64,000 nucleotides of DNA from an uncultured Rivularia sp. (GCA_963665115.1 OY762007.1:2208001-2272000), one strand, 5' to 3'; shown: positions 51,939 through 59,865, counted from the stretch's first letter. Translations and numbers: made by a program. Notes: generated by a model from the letters alone, not told the origin.

Positions 51939-54900
51939 TTAAGCGATATCTGAAACAGCACCTAAAATGTGTAACGTTTCCTTTGTCGCTGCTGTTAAAC
52001 CATTAGCACCTTGAATATTCATTTTTTGATAAGGCTTAGGAATTATCAAAGTTTTAATGCACTTAACTGTATTAATATCCCAGAGCTTAATGGTTTCATC
52101 CTCGCTGCAACTGAATAAAATATTCAACTGGTGACTATAACAAATTGACCAAATACTGTGTTGATGACCTGTTAAAATTTTAAGACAATTTCCCGTACAA
52201 ATATCCCAGAATCTAATAGTGCGATCGTCGCTGGCGCTAATTAAAATTTCTGGTTGAGTAGAAGATTGAGGAATAAAAGTCAGAGCGCGAATTTGTGCTT
52301 GATGTCCAGAAAAAGTTTGCAAGCAATTTTGGGTTTCCACTTCCCATAATTTGATATTGAAATCATCGCTGCTGCTAGCAATTAATTTACCAGAATTATT
52401 AAAAGTTATGGCTCGAATGCGATGGGTATGTCCTTTCAAACTAGTTAAGCAAACTTTCTTGTGAATATCCCACAAATTTATAGATTGACTAGTTCCAGCA
52501 GTCGCTAGAATTTCAGCTTGGGGATGAGAAGCGATCGCCCACATCCATTCTGTTTCTAAATTACCTAAAACTTGAGATTTATTAGTGCAAGTATCCCAGA
52601 TTAAAACTGTGCGATCGTCGCTAGCACTAATTAATGTATGATTATTCTGGATAAATATTATTGACCATATCCAATCAGTATGAGCGCGTAAAGTTTTCAA
52701 GCATTTACCCGTATTTACATCCCAAATTTTAATCGTGCGATCGTGACTAGCACTTGCAATTAGTTCACCATCCGAACTAAAAGTAACGTGACGAATTCTA
52801 CCTTGATGTCCCGACAAGGTTTTTAACAATTCACCAGTTTCTGCATTCCACAATCGAATCTTGCCATCATCGCTACCACTAGCAAGATAGATCGTATTTT
52901 GTTGATAAACGGGACTAACAGCTACAGTCCAAATTCGATTGCTATAACCTTGAAAAGTTTTAATTGGCTCACCAGTTTGAGTATCCCATAACCTAACCAA
53001 CTGGTCATCGCTACCCACGGCAATAATCTTTTTGTCAGCACTATAAGCCAAAGAACGAATGCGGTGATGGGGTTCGTGTAAAGTCATTTGCGGTTCCCCA
53101 TTTGCTAAATTCCAAAGTTGAATTTTATCGGTACCGCAACTGATGATAGTTTCACCATTAGGACTAAATTTAATAGCCCAAATAGCAGTTGGTGCAGTTT
53201 TCACACTCCGCAAACACTTACCTGTATTCACATCCCAAGTTTTCAGACATTGATTATCGGTGCTTCCCACCAAACTTTTACTATCTGGACTAAAAGCAAG
53301 TTTCCGAACCCCTGTGGAATTATCATCAAAGGTTTTTAAACATTCATTCGTCCAGACATTCCATAATCTTATCGAGTCAGCACCACTTGTAGCCAAAGTT
53401 TGACCATCATTACTAAAAGAAAATCCCCAAACCTCTCGATCCGGTTCGTGGAAAGTATAAATGCAAACTCCTGAATCGAGACTCCAAACTTTTACAGTGC
53501 GATCGCTACTGGCGCTAACTACCAAACGCTTATCCCAGATAAAATACACCGACCACACCCAATCAGTATGTCCGCGCAATATTTTTAAACATTTTGCAGT
53601 TTGACTATCCCAAATTTTCACCGTATGGTCATTTCCACAACTTGCAATTAAGTTACCATCCGGACTAAAAGCTACACAGCGAATCCAATCACCATGAGCT
53701 TGCCATGCTAAAATTTGCGAACCATCTGCCACATTCCAAAAACGAATTTGTCCATCCATTCCCCCAGTTGCAAGTAATTTTTGATCGGGGCTAAATGTAA
53801 CGCTAAATATACTACTTAAAGATTGAGAAAAAACAGTTTTATCAAAACTGCAATCGCTAAAATTTACTTGTGGTAATTCCACCCCCTGTAAATAAGCTTG
53901 GGAAATAGGAAGACGAGAAAAATCGTAACCAGCTAGATTTACTTGGAGTTGAATTAAAAGATTAATTAAATTTCCTCCCGCATATCCTACAGGTGCTTGT
54001 AATTCTTGTTCTCTTAACTTCTCAACAATAATACGAAATTTCTGTTCTAAAACTCTTTTCGTCTGGTTTTTGCATAAACTTTCAGCCACAGGTTCTAATA
54101 AAACCCGTTTTTGATTTTCCCTGAGATAATCTGGTGCTGAAGCCTTAATAATCGCGTGAGTTCTTAATAAATCTAACTCGCAACTATCTAATTCATGGAT
54201 AATTTTGGTAATGAAAACTTCCGTAATATACTCCATCACCACATTTTGCAGCGTCAATCCTAAATTAGTAGATTGAATTAAACAACGTCGTAATAAAGAA
54301 TCTAAACCTTCTCGAATCTGACGCGGTGATAAACCTAAAATATCTTCTGCTAAATCATTTTCCGATACAGCTTGACGGTTAATTGCCAACCAATACATTA
54401 AACCTTTTTCTAGTTCCGATAACCGCTCAAACTGCTGCGTTAATAAATCGTGAATATCATCAAAAACAATAATACCTGTATTTAAAAAAGCTTTAATATC
54501 ACCATGAAAAAGTTTTATTATAGTTTCTGGAACAATTTGTAAAGCTAAAGGATTACCGTGATAGCGCTTTACCAATTCTTCGATGTCTTCTGTTGAACCA
54601 CTTATACCCCTTGCAGTCAAAATTTCGGCTGCCTTCTCTAACCCTTTCAACTCCCAAACCCGCACAGGTAAAGTTTCCCCCGCTAACCGTCGCACCTCCT
54701 TAAATTGTTCGCGACTAGTTAAAATCAAACAACTTTGATGTTGAGATTCTCCTATTCTGCGAAATAACTCACCATAACCAGAATATTCCTCACGATAATT
54801 ACCTGAAGAAGAACCACTTTGTAAAATTGATTCAGCATTATCAAGAATCAGCAAACAACGAGAAGCGCGTAAATAATCAATTAATCGCGTGATTTTCTCC

Positions 54901-55505
54901 TCCAAAGTGTCAGGTAAATCAATTTCTTGTTGAAGAGAAAGAAACTTAACAATATCTGCAATTATTTTTTCCGGTGTTGGAGCTTCTCGCAAACTCCGCC
55001 AAATAATATAGTCAAACTCCCCACTTACCTCTTGAGCTAACTTTACCGTCAAAGCAGTTTTACCCACACCACCCATCGCCAAAATTGCTACCAAACGGCA
55101 TTTATCGTTAATTAACCATTGTTTTAGCCTAGTTAATTCTACCCTTCTATCGTAGAAAATTGATACATCAGGAGCAGCATTCCAATCATGCTTTGTCGGT
55201 GATGATTTATCTTTATTATTCGCGCTTTTAACTTCATTCTGAGTTTCAACAACCTCTTCCCAATTTAGTTGTAAGATTTGGCAGAAAGCCTTGAAATTAG
55301 GAGATTTAACAGGTGTACCCCATAGAAAACGCTTCCAAGTACCGATAGAAACCGCGACTACTGGATATTGCCAACTTTTGTTGCCCGGTTCGAGGATATG
55401 ACTCGCTTCTTCTAGCCACGTTGGGTTATCAATGGCTGATCCTCTTTTCTCCCGCGCTTCCTTGATTTTTTTCAGCCCCTCTGGTGATGCTTTTAAGCTC
55501 CGCAT
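51939..55505 (-). CDS. STAND NTPase: N-terminal HTH-like domain + NB-ARC + pentapeptide-like linker + about 14 WD40 repeats
   Basis: DW..APDVS.FY.R, AMGGVGKT, WRSLR, LLILDN.E, LTSRE, GNPLAL; repeated GH..W/V.S..FSPDG...D.T.K.W. Confidence 0.92.
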   Translation of the reverse strand: MRSLKASPEGLKKIKEAREKRGSAIDNPTWLEEASHILEPGNKSWQYPVVAVSIGTWKRFLWGTPVKSPNFKAFCQILQLNWEEVVETQNEVKSANNKDKSSPTKHDWNAAPDVSIFYDRRVELTRLKQWLINDKCRLVAILAMGGVGKTALTVKLAQEVSGEFDYIIWRSLREAPTPEKIIADIVKFLSLQQEIDLPDTLEEKITRLIDYLRASRCLLILDNAESILQSGSSSGNYREEYSGYGELFRRIGESQHQSCLILTSREQFKEVRRLAGETLPVRVWELKGLEKAAEILTARGISGSTEDIEELVKRYHGNPLALQIVPETIIKLFHGDIKAFLNTGIIVFDDIHDLLTQQFERLSELEKGLMYWLAINRQAVSENDLAEDILGLSPRQIREGLDSLLRRCLIQSTNLGLTLQNVVMEYITEVFITKIIHELDSCELDLLRTHAIIKASAPDYLRENQKRVLLEPVAESLCKNQTKRVLEQKFRIIVEKLREQELQAPVGYAGGNLINLLIQLQVNLAGYDFSRLPISQAYLQGVELPQVNFSDCSFDKTVFSQSLSSIFSVTFSPDQKLLATGGMDGQIRFWNVADGSQILAWQAHGDWIRCVAFSPDGNLIASCGNDHTVKIWDSQTAKCLKILRGHTDWVWSVYFIWDKRLVVSASSDRTVKVWSLDSGVCIYTFHEPDREVWGFSFSNDGQTLATSGADSIRLWNVWTNECLKTFDDNSTGVRKLAFSPDSKSLVGSTDNQCLKTWDVNTGKCLRSVKTAPTAIWAIKFSPNGETIISCGTDKIQLWNLANGEPQMTLHEPHHRIRSLAYSADKKIIAVGSDDQLVRLWDTQTGEPIKTFQGYSNRIWTVAVSPVYQQNTIYLASGSDDGKIRLWNAETGELLKTLSGHQGRIRHVTFSSDGELIASASHDRTIKIWDVNTGKCLKTLRAHTDWIWSIIFIQNNHTLISASDDRTVLIWDTCTNKSQVLGNLETEWMWAIASHPQAEILATAGTSQSINLWDIHKKVCLTSLKGHTHRIRAITFNNSGKLIASSSDDFNIKLWEVETQNCLQTFSGHQAQIRALTFIPQSSTQPEILISASDDRTIRFWDICTGNCLKILTGHQHSIWSICYSHQLNILFSCSEDETIKLWDINTVKCIKTLIIPKPYQKMNIQGANGLTAATKETLHILGAVSDIA

Positions 55506-55670
55506 GACTAGGTAATTAGATGAGTGTTGTCAAGTACATTTACGGAACACTACAAGGGGAGGGGTAAGTGATCCGGAATTGTGCTGAAAGTGTGCTGGTT
55601 TTTCTCAGTGGATTTATGGAAGATGGGGATGTGAAGGGTTACAAGAGTGAAAAATGCTGGAGGATTAAAT

Positions 55671-55868
55671 ATGAAACTGAAACTGGGATATTTGGTGTTG
55701 AGTGGTGTGATTTTTACTGCTGCTGTATCTCATACTCAAGCAGCGAATGCATCATCATATCGAGCAGCTCGTGCTATAGGTAATTTTCTTTCAAATCCAA
55801 CTGTTATCACTGCCTTAATAGCATTAATTGCGGTTGTGCTACTAATTGCAAAATACGCTATAAAATAG
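55671..55868 (+). CDS. Small protein with signal peptide and C-terminal TM
   Basis: GGAGG RBS; MKLK-hydrophobic-AANA; C-terminal VITALIALIAVVLLIA. Confidence 0.6.
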   Translation: MKLKLGYLVLSGVIFTAAVSHTQAANASSYRAARAIGNFLSNPTVITALIALIAVVLLIAKYAIK

Positions 55869-55974
55869 CAGCAAGTAGTTACTTTTAAATTCAATATTGG
55901 ATTTATAAAATGGATACTCAATGCTTATACTAATATTTTTTACTATTAACTAAATGAAAGTATTACTTACTCTC

Positions 55975-56065
55975 ATGACTTACGCACCAATATCATTTTT
56001 ATGTCATTATTCGTTGTGTTAAGTAGTCGTAAAGCTTTATTTTTCATTGCGAGTATGTAAGTCAT
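55975..56065. mobile_element. Degenerate member of the 44397 MITE family
   Basis: ATGACTTACGCA ... TATGTAAGTCAT, similar length. Confidence 0.5.
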
Positions 56066-56144
56066 AACTTTATATTTCAGAAACAAATAATGATAATAAA
56101 GTATTTTATCAAACAAACTAACATTATTCCTCAAGGAGTTAACA

Positions 56145-56312
56145 ATGGAAGGATTAGGACTTGTTTTTGGATTGATTTTATTAGTAAGTATAGCTACAGT
56201 TACAATGAAAATTGCTCAAGAAAAAGGACGTAGTTCTACACTCTGGTTTATTTTAGGAATTGCATTTGGATTTTTAGCTTTAATTGTCGTTTCATTTTTA
56301 CCTCATATATAA
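56145..56312 (+). CDS. 55-aa two-TM protein absent from the ORF track
   Basis: AAGGAG RBS at 56133; MEGLGLVFGLILLVSIATVTMKIAQEKGRSSTLWFILGIAFGFLALIVVSFLPHI*. Confidence 0.8.
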   Translation: MEGLGLVFGLILLVSIATVTMKIAQEKGRSSTLWFILGIAFGFLALIVVSFLPHI

Positions 56313-56429
56313 AATAGTTTTATCCTTTATAAACTGGATAAATCAAAGGAGTATAGGATAAATATCATTTATCTTCAAATGTATTAGGTTTAATTGAAAA
56401 ATGTAACAAATTGTTTATCTGGGGAAAAT

Positions 56430-56909
56430 ATGTACGATTCAAAAATTAACGAAATAGAAAAAATGATTGATAAAATTGATAAATTGCAAGGTCAAGCTGA
56501 TAGTTTAAGATCGGAGGTATGTGATTTCAATGATTTTTGGGGATCTGCGGATAGGCTTGCAAATCAAATTAAAACTATTAATAGTGGCACAAAAAATATG
56601 GCACATTGTTTAAAAGAGTTAAAAAAAGAATTAGAAAATTTGTCACCTATATTTAATGATAAGGAATCACAACAAATTGCAAATAAATGGGTATATGTTG
56701 TAGCTAAACTAAAACGTTTAACAGAAACTGTAAATAATGCACAATATGAATTGGTTGATAGAAACTTTTGGGCTTGGGCTTCTTCTTTACTTGAAAATTT
56801 GGGAAATTTACTTAGACAAGTGATAGATGACGTAAAAGAAATAGCAGTGCGAGGAACAAAGAAATTAATCACTGAAGGCAAAATATTATTTCTTCCAGGA
56901 ATAGATTAA
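56430..56909 (+). CDS. Hypothetical helical/coiled-coil protein
   Basis: 159 aa from ATG 56430; heptad pattern, amphipathic C-terminal helix. Confidence 0.7.
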   Translation: MYDSKINEIEKMIDKIDKLQGQADSLRSEVCDFNDFWGSADRLANQIKTINSGTKNMAHCLKELKKELENLSPIFNDKESQQIANKWVYVVAKLKRLTETVNNAQYELVDRNFWAWASSLLENLGNLLRQVIDDVKEIAVRGTKKLITEGKILFLPGID

Positions 56910-56957
56910 ACATCTAATTAGTAAAACTAAACATAATCCAAAAATAAGGCTGATGTT

Positions 56958-57401
56958 ATGAGCAAAAATATAGCTTTAGAAAAATTAATGACAAAATCTA
57001 CAAATAGCTTAAGAGTTTTAGAAGAAGAAATAGAATCATATGATGATATTGATTTAAGACATATACTTTTTTTATTAATTAATAAGTTAGTGTGTTCCGG
57101 TCAACACGATGAAGATAACACAAGAATAAAGCAAATATACAGAGAATTAGAGCGTATTCGTTCACAAATAAAAGCAGCTATCGATACTTATTCCAGAGAA
57201 CTTAAAAAAGATGATAACAATAATAAAGATACATTAGGATATATATCACAAATGATGCAAGTACTACGAAAGGTTTCAGTTATCGAAGAAAAATTAAATC
57301 GTAAAGACATTGAGAATATCATTAACAATCATAGTAGTAGTAAAAGTCGTCATCAAAAAGATAATGATATAAATTGGGATGACTTAGATTTAAATCTGTA
57401 G
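56958..57401 (+). CDS. Hypothetical helical protein
   Basis: 147-aa ORF, charged helices, acidic tail. Confidence 0.7.
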   Translation: MSKNIALEKLMTKSTNSLRVLEEEIESYDDIDLRHILFLLINKLVCSGQHDEDNTRIKQIYRELERIRSQIKAAIDTYSRELKKDDNNNKDTLGYISQMMQVLRKVSVIEEKLNRKDIENIINNHSSSKSRHQKDNDINWDDLDLNL

Positions 57402-57467: not shown

Positions 57468-58667
57468 ATGCCTTCCAACGAAAACAACAACACCACCTTA
57501 TCCATCGCAGCATTAGCCGCAGCAGCAACCGGGATTTGGTCAATTTTCAACAACTCAAATAAATCAAACAACAACTATAAGCAGACAGAAGTGGATGCTT
57601 TATTTAACCAAGCGCTTGCCTTAATTCAACAAGGAAACTATCATCAAGCAACCCAGATATTCCTTCAAATTTTAGAAACAAATCCTCAGCACGCACCAAC
57701 CTATAACTACCTAGCTTGGATTTATGCAATTCATAACTATGAACTCGAACAAGCACTTGCATTTGCAAATAATGCGGTTCAACTAGCAAGCAGTCACGTT
57801 GATAAAGCTTGTTTTATTGATACTCTTGCAGAAGTTTATGCCCGTAAACAACAATTAGATACAGCAATAGCATTATCTTTAGATTGCTTAAAAATATTTC
57901 AAGGTATTAATAAATATCCTAATAATCCAACAACTTATTTTCGTTTGGCTTGGTGCTATCAAATTAAACAGGATTTTAATCAAGCCTACTATTTTATCCA
58001 GCAAATTCTACAATTTAACAGTATAGGAGCAAACGAACACCTAACGATAGGGGATATTTGTTACGCAATCGCCTTTTGTACTAGCAGTCAGGGAATGTAT
58101 CACGATTCCTTATCCCATTTTGATAACGCTATCCAACATTATCAAATATCCCTCAACATTGCCCAAAGCCAAAACTTTAGTATTGACTTATTCAGATTAA
58201 AGCTAAGTTGTTGTCTGAATGATAAAGCAAGAATTTTTTTTGTTCTAGAAGATTACCAAAGTAGTCAGAATTTATATCTCCAATCACATAATGTTTATAA
58301 TTTAAATCCTTATCCTTTAGTTAATTTGGCTCTTTTAGCTGCACGAGCTAAAAATAAACAGCAAATGCTTTTTTGGGTAGGAAAAACAATGCCTTTGATT
58401 GTAGATATGCCTCCCTACGTGCAGAAAGAAAAGTTAGTATATATTCTACTTACAGATATAGATTTTGATGATTATAAAGAGGATATTTTAGGATTACTTT
58501 TCAACCACGGCAAAATCAACCAATACGAATATGCACAATTTATAAAAAAAGCAATTAAGTCAAATCAGCCAATTATGAATTTTTCACAACAGAACTTTTA
58601 TGCAGATGTTACTGGTGTGGCTGGTAATGTTGAGGGAAATTTCATGTATCAACCTCAATGTGCATAA
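57468..58667 (+). CDS. TPR protein with N-terminal hydrophobic segment and C-terminal GVAGNVEG motif
   Basis: LSIAALAAAATGIWSIF; ALALIQQGNYHQA, YNYLAW, DTLAEVY, YFRLAWCY TPRs. Confidence 0.85.
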   Translation: MPSNENNNTTLSIAALAAAATGIWSIFNNSNKSNNNYKQTEVDALFNQALALIQQGNYHQATQIFLQILETNPQHAPTYNYLAWIYAIHNYELEQALAFANNAVQLASSHVDKACFIDTLAEVYARKQQLDTAIALSLDCLKIFQGINKYPNNPTTYFRLAWCYQIKQDFNQAYYFIQQILQFNSIGANEHLTIGDICYAIAFCTSSQGMYHDSLSHFDNAIQHYQISLNIAQSQNFSIDLFRLKLSCCLNDKARIFFVLEDYQSSQNLYLQSHNVYNLNPYPLVNLALLAARAKNKQQMLFWVGKTMPLIVDMPPYVQKEKLVYILLTDIDFDDYKEDILGLLFNHGKINQYEYAQFIKKAIKSNQPIMNFSQQNFYADVTGVAGNVEGNFMYQPQCA

Positions 58668-58703
58668 ACAAAACTCATAAATTAATCATAAGGAGATAAT
58701 TTT

Positions 58704-59063
58704 ATGTCAGATAATTCTAAAGTTCAAATGAATATGCATCAAGCAACTATTTCAGGTGGTGTTGCTGGTAATGTTGAAGGTGATTTTAATGTTAATCAAC
58801 AGCAAAATTTATCCGAAGCAGCAGCAGAAATCCAACAATTACTCAATCAACTATCTCAAACCTACCCGACAAACACAACTTCTGAAAAAATGGAAGTAGC
58901 AACAACAGCTATCCAACGTATCGAGAATAATTCTAATCTTCGTCAACGGGTACTCAACGCTTTAAAAACAGGAGGAATTCAAGCGTTAGGCCAAATGCTG
59001 AATCACCCGGCATCAACTTTTGTAATTGCAGCTTTGGATGATTGGCAGAAAAGCCAAAATTGA
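58704..59063 (+). CDS. Small protein: N-terminal GVAGNVEG motif + helical 'NL.EAAAEIQQLL' domain
   Basis: AAGGAG RBS. The C-terminal domain resembles one I recall at the ends of many cyanobacterial multidomain proteins. Confidence 0.85.
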   Translation: MSDNSKVQMNMHQATISGGVAGNVEGDFNVNQQQNLSEAAAEIQQLLNQLSQTYPTNTTSEKMEVATTAIQRIENNSNLRQRVLNALKTGGIQALGQMLNHPASTFVIAALDDWQKSQN

Positions 59064-59283: not shown

Positions 59284-59865
59284 TCAATTCTTCTCTCCCA
59301 CATCAAACTGAACTCGTCGATAAAGTTTCTCTACCGAAATCGAAATTCCCACGCTTTCCAAATTCAAAGTATCACCTTCCCCGTAGGTATGTAAAACCCA
59401 TAAACCTTTATCATTCCGACGAAAGCATTCCACAGCAATTTCATCGGATGCAATTAAAACGTATTCTTTTAAAGTGCTTGATTGACGATAGCGAGTGAAT
59501 TTTTTACCTCTATCGAAAGCTTCTGTTGATGGGGAAAGCACTTCGACAATTAAACAAGGATGACGGATCATGTCAATCCGTCCTTTATCTCTCTCATCAC
59601 AAGTTACTACTACATCGGGATAATGATATGGTCCTGCTTCTGATACTTGTACTTTCACATCAGAGATATAAAATTCACAACCCTTTTCGGCTAAAAAATT
59701 ATCTAACTCACTACCTAAGTTAAAAGCAATACGGCTATGGGGTTTTGTTCCCCCAGTCATTGCGAATACTTCACCGTCAATATATTCATAACGGAGTTCT
59801 TGAGTTTTTTCCCATTCCAGGTATTCCTGGGGACTCATGTATTGAAATTGAGGATTAGCAACCAT
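59284..59865 (-). CDS. Uma2-family (DUF820) putative endonuclease
   Basis: EYIDG...M.GG...H, YPDVVV, P.LIVEVLSPST...DR..K...Y, EYVLI. Confidence 0.93.
   Translation of the reverse strand: MVANPQFQYMSPQEYLEWEKTQELRYEYIDGEVFAMTGGTKPHSRIAFNLGSELDNFLAEKGCEFYISDVKVQVSEAGPYHYPDVVVTCDERDKGRIDMIRHPCLIVEVLSPSTEAFDRGKKFTRYRQSSTLKEYVLIASDEIAVECFRRNDKGLWVLHTYGEGDTLNLESVGISISVEKLYRRVQFDVGEKN

Follow-up and report, generated by a model that had tools for sequence, protein, structure and literature searches.

In the window, that is, the whole analysed stretch of 64,000 nucleotides from an uncultured Rivularia sp. (GCA_963665115.1 OY762007.1:2208001-2272000), two adjacent genes encode a TPR protein and a small helical protein that share a G/N-rich motif, located at the C-terminus of the former and at the N-terminus of the latter. 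The shared motif is real, selected and modular. On comparative sequence evidence, we lean towards reading the pair as amyloid signalling of the BASS kind, in which the geometry is reversed and the output domain, here called HEL, is new. An earlier note on this DNA had put forward an amyloid-pair interpretation. The comparative predictions of that interpretation held, whereas HEL as a death effector found no match to two Bell-like proteins or solved pore formers. The note did not recognize the pair as a member of a large modular family, nor that its two motifs travel as one recombining block.

Organization of the TPR gene and the small gene

All features of the pair lie on the + strand. The TPR gene (57468..58667) encodes a candidate receptor of 399 aa without an NTPase domain, which ends ...NFSQQNFYADVTGVAGNVEGNFMYQPQCA. 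It is followed after 36 bp by the small gene (58704..59063), which encodes a 119-aa protein beginning MSDNSKVQMNMHQATISGGVAGNVEGDFNVNQQQ and is preceded by a Shine-Dalgarno site read from the sequence, AAGGAG (58690..58695), 8 nt 5' of its ATG. The gap, the ribosome-binding site and the shared GVAGNVEG, as given in the earlier note, were confirmed from the sequence and the ORFs. One gene split by a sequencing error was rejected as an explanation, because the split recurs in all orthologous loci read. A promoter and terminator scan was uninformative, with 28 promoter-like sites against 18 expected, none of them directly before the TPR start, and one terminator-like site within the small gene.

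The TPR protein exceeded the Pfam cut-offs for TPR_12, TPR_2, TPR_17 and TPR_1. The 25 Pfam matches shown were to TPR families only, neither a GreA/B-C nor a PIN domain was found, and the model was all-helical. The AF2 model and Pfam together define a TPR-like helical solenoid (residues 37-364, 57576..58559) of 17 helices with pLDDT mostly 80-95, which agrees with the claim of a receptor lacking an NTPase. The note's hint of a membrane anchor is matched by a hydrophobic N-terminal helix (residues 9-27, 57492..57548; KD19 1.56), which is conserved in 15 of 16 homologues, has no basic residues before it and lysines after it, and is detached from the solenoid at low confidence in the AF2 model. 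We infer from this helix a possible membrane anchor.

The C-terminal motif of the TPR protein (residues 371-394, 58578..58649; core GVAGNVEG at 58614-58637) lies in a tail (residues 364-399) with pLDDT <50 in the AF2 model. Though predicted to be disordered, this motif is the best-conserved region measured, with a column conservation across 16 TPR homologues of 0.84; the TPR body reaches 0.75 and the linker that leads into the motif 0.64. In the small protein, the N-terminal motif (residues 7-31, 58722..58796; core at 58758-58781) falls largely in a head (residues 1-29) that is also predicted to be disordered (pLDDT <50). The geometry is indeed inverted as described earlier. The head is followed by five predicted helices (residues 30-118) that constitute HEL (58806..59060), an unnamed domain recognized from the structure model and family comparison; its length of about 85 aa is that proposed earlier for a helical effector domain. 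No Pfam model scored above cut-off for the small protein.

The shared motif within the genome

GVAGNVEG is the core of a G/N-rich motif of ~25 residues, whose consensus is roughly hydrophobic-x-Q/M-N-F-x-(A/G)-x-V-x-(G/N)-(V/A)-(A/V)-G-N-V-E-G-(D/N)-F. Three of the eight core codons differ synonymously between the two genes (gtg/gtt, gag/gaa, gga/ggt). The pattern GVAGNV.G has two matches in the 42,422 six-frame ORFs of the 8.69-Mb genome, both in the pair. A motif profile built from 34 related copies, with the pair left out, matched only the TPR gene and the small gene genome-wide (E 1.5e-14 and 7.1e-12; next best about 3), and a trans-acting motif elsewhere in the genome was therefore rejected. 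When 2,487 pairs of adjacent co-oriented genes were ranked by tail-to-head similarity, this pair came 6th; four of the five pairs above it are repeats or paralogues, and the other is a Bell-like/NB-ARC pair. Within the window's own pair the match is modest (10 identical residues over 15 aligned columns, score 49) and the two motifs differ in their first half; several orthologous pairs match better, with scores of 67-74.

HEL, a large family of C-terminal helical domains

HEL was matched in 136 of 201 family genomes and, at a stricter cut-off, in 57 of 301 phylum genomes, and clustering at 50% identity divides the family into 1,858 clusters. Of 149 HEL domains examined, 140 are C-terminal, and HEL is typically preceded by a G/N-rich motif. 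HEL had no family match in Pfam or NCBIfam, the EAD/bDLD/TCAD Pfam models matched none of 44 HEL members, and Foldseek found no match to solved structures at E<=0.001. VIA-align gave nothing clear, the best match being a TetR regulator (Z 6.3, rmsd 5.4, 88 aligned), and the sequence profile comparison with the PDB gave only summed weak matches to designed armadillo repeats, with no single stretch significant. Neither sequence nor fold comparison linked HEL to HeLo, MLKL or Death domains, and hhalign comparison with two Bell-like proteins of this genome gave probabilities of 0.6% and 1.0%; a remote kinship with Bell domains could escape such a comparison. In addition, the small protein is without the N-terminal hydrophobic helix typical of Bell/HeLo/MLKL, and the HEL helices are amphipathic and mildly hydrophobic, the most hydrophobic 19-mer averaging 0.8. 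PADLOC matched neither the TPR protein nor the small protein. The ESM Atlas provided unconfirmed leads to DUF2321 (0.88-0.90), TCAD2 (0.84-0.88), DUF4404 (0.82) and an AbiTii-bearing cluster (0.77). No paper on HEL or on the reversed geometry was found in a search whose scope left out most subscription journals.

Among long HEL fusions, 31 of 46 were scanned, and LRR-Roc-COR, AbiTii, CHAT, TRADD-N, HEAT and pentapeptide domains were found to precede the motif, with no domain match in 9 of the 31. In the LRR-Roc-COR proteins HEL fills the C-terminal slot, and the Roco C-terminal slot has been described as an effector position (Kaur 2021, PMC8195603).

Several individual loci show the variety of the family. 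The second HEL of this genome (L179, G000:C1:3495017-3495727) is preceded by tandem ~18-aa repeats, not by a G/N-rich motif, and has no matching neighbour. Three HEL proteins near the query (L045 in G045, P0025 and P0026) carry a different, RHIM/BASS3-like motif, with the core VQIGD or TQVGD in L045 and P0025, and the motif of L045 is echoed at the C-terminus of an upstream 382-aa gene (shuffle p 0.03). In G186, an array of four motif-bearing genes (L071:986-4030 and downstream) encodes a 273-aa protein with an internal motif, a standalone motif+HEL protein, a TRADD-N-motif-HEL protein and a 320-aa protein with a weaker copy. In P0225 (474 aa), motif and HEL run in frame into a second motif and a downstream protein, which looks like a two-gene pair fused by read-through.

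Motif matching between HEL genes and their neighbours

We examined 179 fetched loci, a non-random set of best matches, standalone-sized matches picked from the listing and 55 metagenome loci. These yielded 151 distinct HEL genes, of which one was dropped for a misplaced boundary and three were without a neighbour. A match was counted when a same-strand neighbour within 2.5 kb beat all 100 shuffles over the up-to-42 residues before HEL. By this measure, 54 of 85 standalone HEL genes have a motif-sharing neighbour, against 11 of 148 small genes of this genome as control, which bears out the prediction that motif pairs are enriched among neighbouring genes; after removal of the TPR loci the figure is 45 of 74. 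Matching neighbours were found for 18 of 62 fused or open HEL genes, leaving 31 of 85 standalone and 44 of 62 fused genes without one, some with short flanks.

The 72 HEL/partner pairs fall into 14 motif clusters, and the cognate partner outscores all other-cluster partners in 70 of them; it ranks first overall in only 28 of 72, since kin inside a cluster cross-match. Among the 54 standalone pairs, the partner motif lies at the C-terminus of the upstream gene, as in the window, in 29 cases, at the N-terminus of the downstream gene in 16 and elsewhere in 9. Among the domains detected by scanning 39 partners were NACHT (6), NB-ARC (3), nSTAND1, caspase, CHAT, HEAT, TPR, pentapeptide, FGE, FHA, GUN4 and DUF6232, with 10 partners giving no match. 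Twelve loci share one partner family (DUF6232 in all 5 members scanned, the others being linked by BLAST) but carry five motif types, and each small protein matches its own type in a block-diagonal matrix. The query-type motif itself also occurs N-terminally in NB-ARC and NB-ARC-TPR proteins (L151, L152) and C-terminally in a HEAT protein (L165). Relative to the genome, the 72 paired motifs are enriched in N (x2.9), G (x2.3), Y (x2.3), I (x1.3) and Q (x1.1), with V about level (x0.95) and L (x0.1), P (x0.25) and K (x0.6) depleted, a BASS-like make-up.

These comparative results display matched tags, not fibrils. The motifs might accordingly be matched docking tags that join by ordinary beta-strand addition into a small reversible complex, with HEL as an EAD-like adaptor and no self-propagating amyloid. 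The soluble look of HEL, amphipathic rather than hydrophobic, and the great diversity of the partners, which include pentapeptide, FHA and FGE proteins, would suit such docking. The motifs, however, fit tested BASS motifs in their length (~25-30 aa), G/N-rich and L/P-poor make-up, predicted disorder and N-terminal position in NLRs; by eye the window's motif is like BASS2 entries, and the VQIGD/TQVGD core of L045 and P0025 is RHIM/BASS3-like. We consider docking without amyloid unlikely.

Persistence of the motif match despite codon drift

Where partners have the same residue, they use the same codon in 649 of 1,159 cases (56%), compared with 42.5% expected if unrelated, indicating that the motif copies have a common origin from which they have since drifted. 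When neutral drift was simulated down to 58% codon identity, 34% amino-acid identity and a median score of 34 were left, whereas the observed pairs, which were chosen for significance, a choice that favours high scores, show 61% amino-acid identity and a median score of 81. The persistence of amino-acid matches despite synonymous drift indicates that the shared motif is no duplication relic. The three synonymous codon differences had been taken earlier as a sign of protein-level conservation, and across pairs the matches do outlast synonymous drift. Some pairs have a recently copied look, for example with 21 of 24 (L100) and 21 of 23 (L149) identical codons.

The drift simulation largely refutes the proposal that the two motifs are a relic, left either when a fused X-motif-HEL gene was split with local duplication or by gene conversion between neighbours whose products do not interact. 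Fused X-motif-HEL genes are common, codon identity exceeds the unrelated level, a few pairs look freshly copied and the motif block recombines as a unit, all of which a relic would accommodate. In contrast, the TPR-HEL fusion that would have spoken for such a history was sought and not found among 16 homologues of 378-427 aa, in a search that covered 219-699 aa, so that a fusion of ~520 aa would fall inside it. Moreover, even in homologues as distant as 46% identity no part of the TPR protein is better conserved than the tail motif, amino-acid similarity is far above neutral drift, and fission cannot explain the 16 standalone cases in which the partner lies downstream and has its motif at the N-terminus. 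A relic is very improbable in our assessment.

The pair in related genomes and exchange of the motif block

The TPR protein was matched in 9 of 201 family genomes, 7 times at full length (this genome included) and twice by its last ~50 residues only. In the 6 of 200 other family genomes with full-length orthologues, the small gene lies directly 3' in all six. The close homologues that carry a name belong to filamentous cyanobacteria of the genera Calothrix, Rivularia, Tolypothrix, Richelia, Scytonema and Nostoc.

In 13 of 14 TPR pairs the two motifs have concordant residues near the core (VAG/VAG in 7, AVG/AVG or AIG in 6), the discordant pair being P0079/P0021; 11 of the 14 were read from DNA and 3 were paired indirectly, by consecutive locus tags or by contigs of equal length. 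The VAG and AVG states are interleaved on the TPR tree, and the HEL tree is poorly resolved, with 2 of 24 branches starred. Over 58578..58800, which spans both motifs and the spacer between them, history differs from that of the flanks. Compared with G163 and G106, this genome has an identity of 0.55-0.65 in the 3' TPR body and 0.64-0.88 over 58578-58800, while with G067 and G086 the values are 0.75-0.88 in the same body regions and 0.39-0.68 over 58578-58800. The different history of the block and the TPR body indicates that both motifs and the spacer were exchanged together. Because the block moves as a unit, linkage can produce the 13 of 14 agreements, and co-variation among TPR orthologues, which we first read as co-evolution but give less weight in view of the block exchange, does not independently prove coupling. 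Of the earlier expectation that motif variants co-vary, the type matching across 14 clusters therefore stands, whereas the part concerning TPR orthologues is partly linkage.

The pair lies in a locus of variable gene content, bounded on the left by a divergent P-loop/WD40 NLR-like gene (51939..55505, - strand; WD40 by Pfam, P-loop read from the sequence) and on the right by a Uma2 family gene outside the pair (59284..59865, - strand). The small genes, ATPases or GTPases that lie between these two genes differ in each of four genomes. On the 5' side of the TPR gene, the window has three small, unassigned ORFs on the + strand at 55647-57401 (73 aa, 171 aa with coiled coil, and 147 aa), and the matching slot in L081, L082 and L083 holds entirely different genes (a GTPase, an AAA ATPase with IetA-like PADLOC matches, and unassigned genes); this slot is a variable hotspot. 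The presence of the TPR gene is itself patchy, with broken copies. In G013 and G005 (L075, L076), the TPR body is gone and the last ~50 codons with the motif stay an open frame before the small gene, which in G005 is also frameshifted. In G150 (L074:3919-4257, - strand), the TPR tail and motif are joined to an unrelated ~60-aa helical module followed by an intact small gene, an arrangement suggesting that the TPR tail can be re-attached to other partners. The small gene is intact in both G013 and G150, where the TPR protein is reduced to its tail.

Internal starts in fused HEL genes

Of 64 fused genes, which may include a few standalone ORFs extended too far, 57 have a Met located 20-60 residues N-terminal to HEL, against 75 of 303 background windows, and a Shine-Dalgarno-like site precedes the internal Met in 28 of 64, against 6 of 112 other Mets. 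A second set, which may overlap the first, gave an internal Met in 85 of 114 genes against 162 of 773. These patterns suggest that long fused genes may also yield a short motif+HEL isoform from the internal Met; alternatively, the internal Met and ribosome site could be a record of recent fusions.

That the motif+HEL unit keeps its own start in fused genes bears on another role for the small protein. The motifs might stack in amyloid-like fashion while the small protein serves as a brake, a cheap decoy of motif and HEL, translated on its own, which would cap or dilute the fibril of the partner and so guard against spurious activation. It would fit a brake that HEL accompanies proteins that already bear enzymes (caspase, CHAT, AbiTii), and that foci failed to form in a fungal test when a folded domain followed the motif (PMC9815663). 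The genome, however, encodes no third motif protein and the TPR protein has no recognisable output domain, so that nothing else is there to be activated, and HEL sits in the Roco slot described for effectors (PMC8195603). The intact small genes beside tail-only TPR remnants (G013, G150) fit an effector or a brake. We judge such a brake improbable, slightly more so than docking.

A wider reading, which we offer tentatively from sequence comparisons, is that HEL may define a large class of cyanobacterial output modules, as yet without a name, that are gated by amyloid. Each would be a portable cassette placed beside or in frame behind any sensor, where fused genes would make both sensor and effector by internal initiation and a swap of the 220-bp block would change specificity. 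If so, the cassette would consist of its own ribosome site, a Met, a swappable ~30-aa amyloid tag and the 85-aa helical domain, and would serve sensors as different as NLR, TPR, HEAT, Roco, membrane DUF6232 and caspase proteins. NTPase-free receptors could then fire amyloid cell-death switches from their C-termini.

Proposed mechanism of the pair

Every step beyond motif matching is one that we infer. If the pair is a BASS-like amyloid switch, the disordered TPR tail and the disordered head of the small protein would stack into a common amyloid-like fibril. The TPR solenoid would sense a cue and cluster, perhaps at the membrane via helix 9-27, with this clustering standing in for NTPase oligomerisation. 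The clustered TPR tail would then template cross-beta stacking of the small-protein head, as in Bab/Agp and HET-S, and stacking would cluster or release HEL, so that the triggered receptor converts the small protein. HEL would be the output, either through membrane-active amphipathic helices or as an adaptor recruiting a killer, and the system may act as an immune or cell-death switch in defence. Output by HEL is suggested by position: the genome has no other motif gene, the TPR protein has no other domain, and HEL takes the Roco C-terminal slot. Gene order and motif position are reversed together, so the motifs stay tail-to-head and could be swapped jointly as a specificity cassette.

Several lines of evidence argue for this amyloid switch: the restriction of the motif to the pair, the small gene behind TPR orthologues, neighbour enrichment and cluster matching; the partners (NACHT, NB-ARC-TPR, nSTAND1, caspase, CHAT) and the position of HEL after AbiTii, CHAT and TRADD-N; the query-type motif at the N-termini of NB-ARC(-TPR) proteins (L151, L152), the canonical BASS receptor position; and the BASS-like composition, the five matched DUF6232 motif types, the amino-acid match beyond drift and the patchy, variable locus. 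Against it stand the dissimilarity of HEL to Bell-like proteins, its mild hydrophobicity and the lack of an NTPase or other clustering module in the TPR protein, together with block recombination, codon identity above the unrelated level, recent-copy pairs, unmatched HEL genes, the weak first-half match in the window's pair and the PADLOC null. A fungal test also weighs against it, in which a motif (PUASM) placed N-terminal to GFP formed no foci (Wojciechowski 2022, PMC9815663). The pair is small (399 + 119 aa) and has natural mismatched variants, which makes templating, specificity and signalling direction directly testable.

Comparison with known systems

In fungal NWD2/HET-S, PP and PUASM and in animal RHIM/cRHIM systems (RIPK1/RIPK3, PGRP-LC/Imd), a short common motif likewise couples a receptor to a downstream protein. 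In Imd and RIPK1, the motif is followed by a helical Death domain, and the membrane receptor PGRP-LC has no NTPase. The domain order of Imd, RIPK1 and PGRP-LC therefore provides a precedent for the window's geometry with an adaptor output. In contrast to RHIM systems, the G-phi-Q-phi-G core is absent from the window's motif, whose core is GVAGNVEG, and HEL is without a match to HeLo, MLKL or Death domains. That core defines RHIM/PP/BASS3 motifs (Dyrka 2020, bioRxiv 10.1101/2020.01.06.895854), and cRHIMs are reported in PGRPs and Imd (Pysz 2025/PMC13506858).

Effector-associated domains (EAD1-11, bDLD) are homotypic modules of neighbouring genes in conflict systems of multicellular bacteria (PMC7159879, PMC8195603). 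They resemble the pair in homotypic sharing by neighbours, and HEL occurs among the same protein kinds (Roco, TRADD-N, CHAT, NACHT neighbours). EADs, however, are folded and present in both partners, whereas here a short disordered motif is common and HEL is in one partner only, being absent from the TPR protein.

Bab/Agp (BASS11), an abortive infection system of E. coli (Ibarlosa 2024, bioRxiv 10.1101/2024.11.07.622273), is the only bacterial pair with a demonstrated function in the literature surveyed. It resembles the window's pair in having a non-NLR, TPR-containing receptor, a small helical protein, a common motif and adjacent genes. As far as described there, the motif of Agp is N-terminal and the protein also contains GreA/B-C and PIN domains, whereas the window's TPR protein has neither domain and a C-terminal motif; in Bab the motif is C-terminal and accompanied by a Babybell domain, the first helix of which is hydrophobic, whereas the small protein has an N-terminal motif and no such domain.

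The Bell-BASS/NLR pairs (BASS1-10) share a motif of about 25 aa that is rich in Q/N/G/V/I and poor in K/P/L (Dyrka 2020, bioRxiv 10.1101/2020.01.06.895854). Two canonical-looking pairs of the Bell-like/BASS/NLR kind occur in this genome (L180, G000:C1:3137494-3137916 with the 3133115-3137347 region; L181, G000:C1:5374115-5376371); their small proteins start MEPL/MVEPL, carry a C-terminal motif and are followed by P-loop TPR genes with matching N-terminal motifs, which by eye resemble sets C12 and C06 in the BASS supplement, and the NLR of L180 is split in the TPR region. The window's pair is similar in its adjacent collinear genes, common ~25-aa G/N/Q-rich motif and small helical protein of about 120 aa, in its occurrence in filamentous cyanobacteria, the named homologues coming from multicellular hosts as do BASS pairs, in the variation of motif type among pairs, and in the query-type motif also found at NB-ARC N-termini. 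The 72 HEL/partner motifs, enriched in N and G and depleted in L, P and K, have the composition described for BASS. By eye the window's motif is like BASS2, resembling set C02 (taken to be BASS2 on account of its size, 329) minus 2-3 residues, and GNVEG is present in some C02 entries (Dyrka 2021 supplement).

There are also differences. BASS receptors are NACHT/NB-ARC NLRs with an N-terminal motif, an arrangement seen with the query-type motif at L151 and L152, whereas the window's partner is TPR-only; the window's motif is N-terminal in the small protein and C-terminal in its partner; and HEL matched neither of two Bell-like proteins from this genome and lacks a hydrophobic helix at its N-terminus. 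Some HEL domains are also fused behind the motif, with an internal start, while BASS all-in-one forms join effector and NLR directly. With three defining BASS features thus lacking, the pair is BASS-like but not a member of the BASS pairs. Published bacterial amyloid signalling, in the sources surveyed, has one layout, with the motif at the effector C-terminus and the receptor N-terminus, mined from Bell domains, and the screens compared Bell or other C-termini with NLR N-termini (Dyrka 2020, bioRxiv 10.1101/2020.01.06.895854). The TPR/small pair and the HEL family point to a second layout that Bell-based screens would miss, with an output domain of >1,800 clusters, at least 14 motif types and NTPase-free receptors as its new elements.
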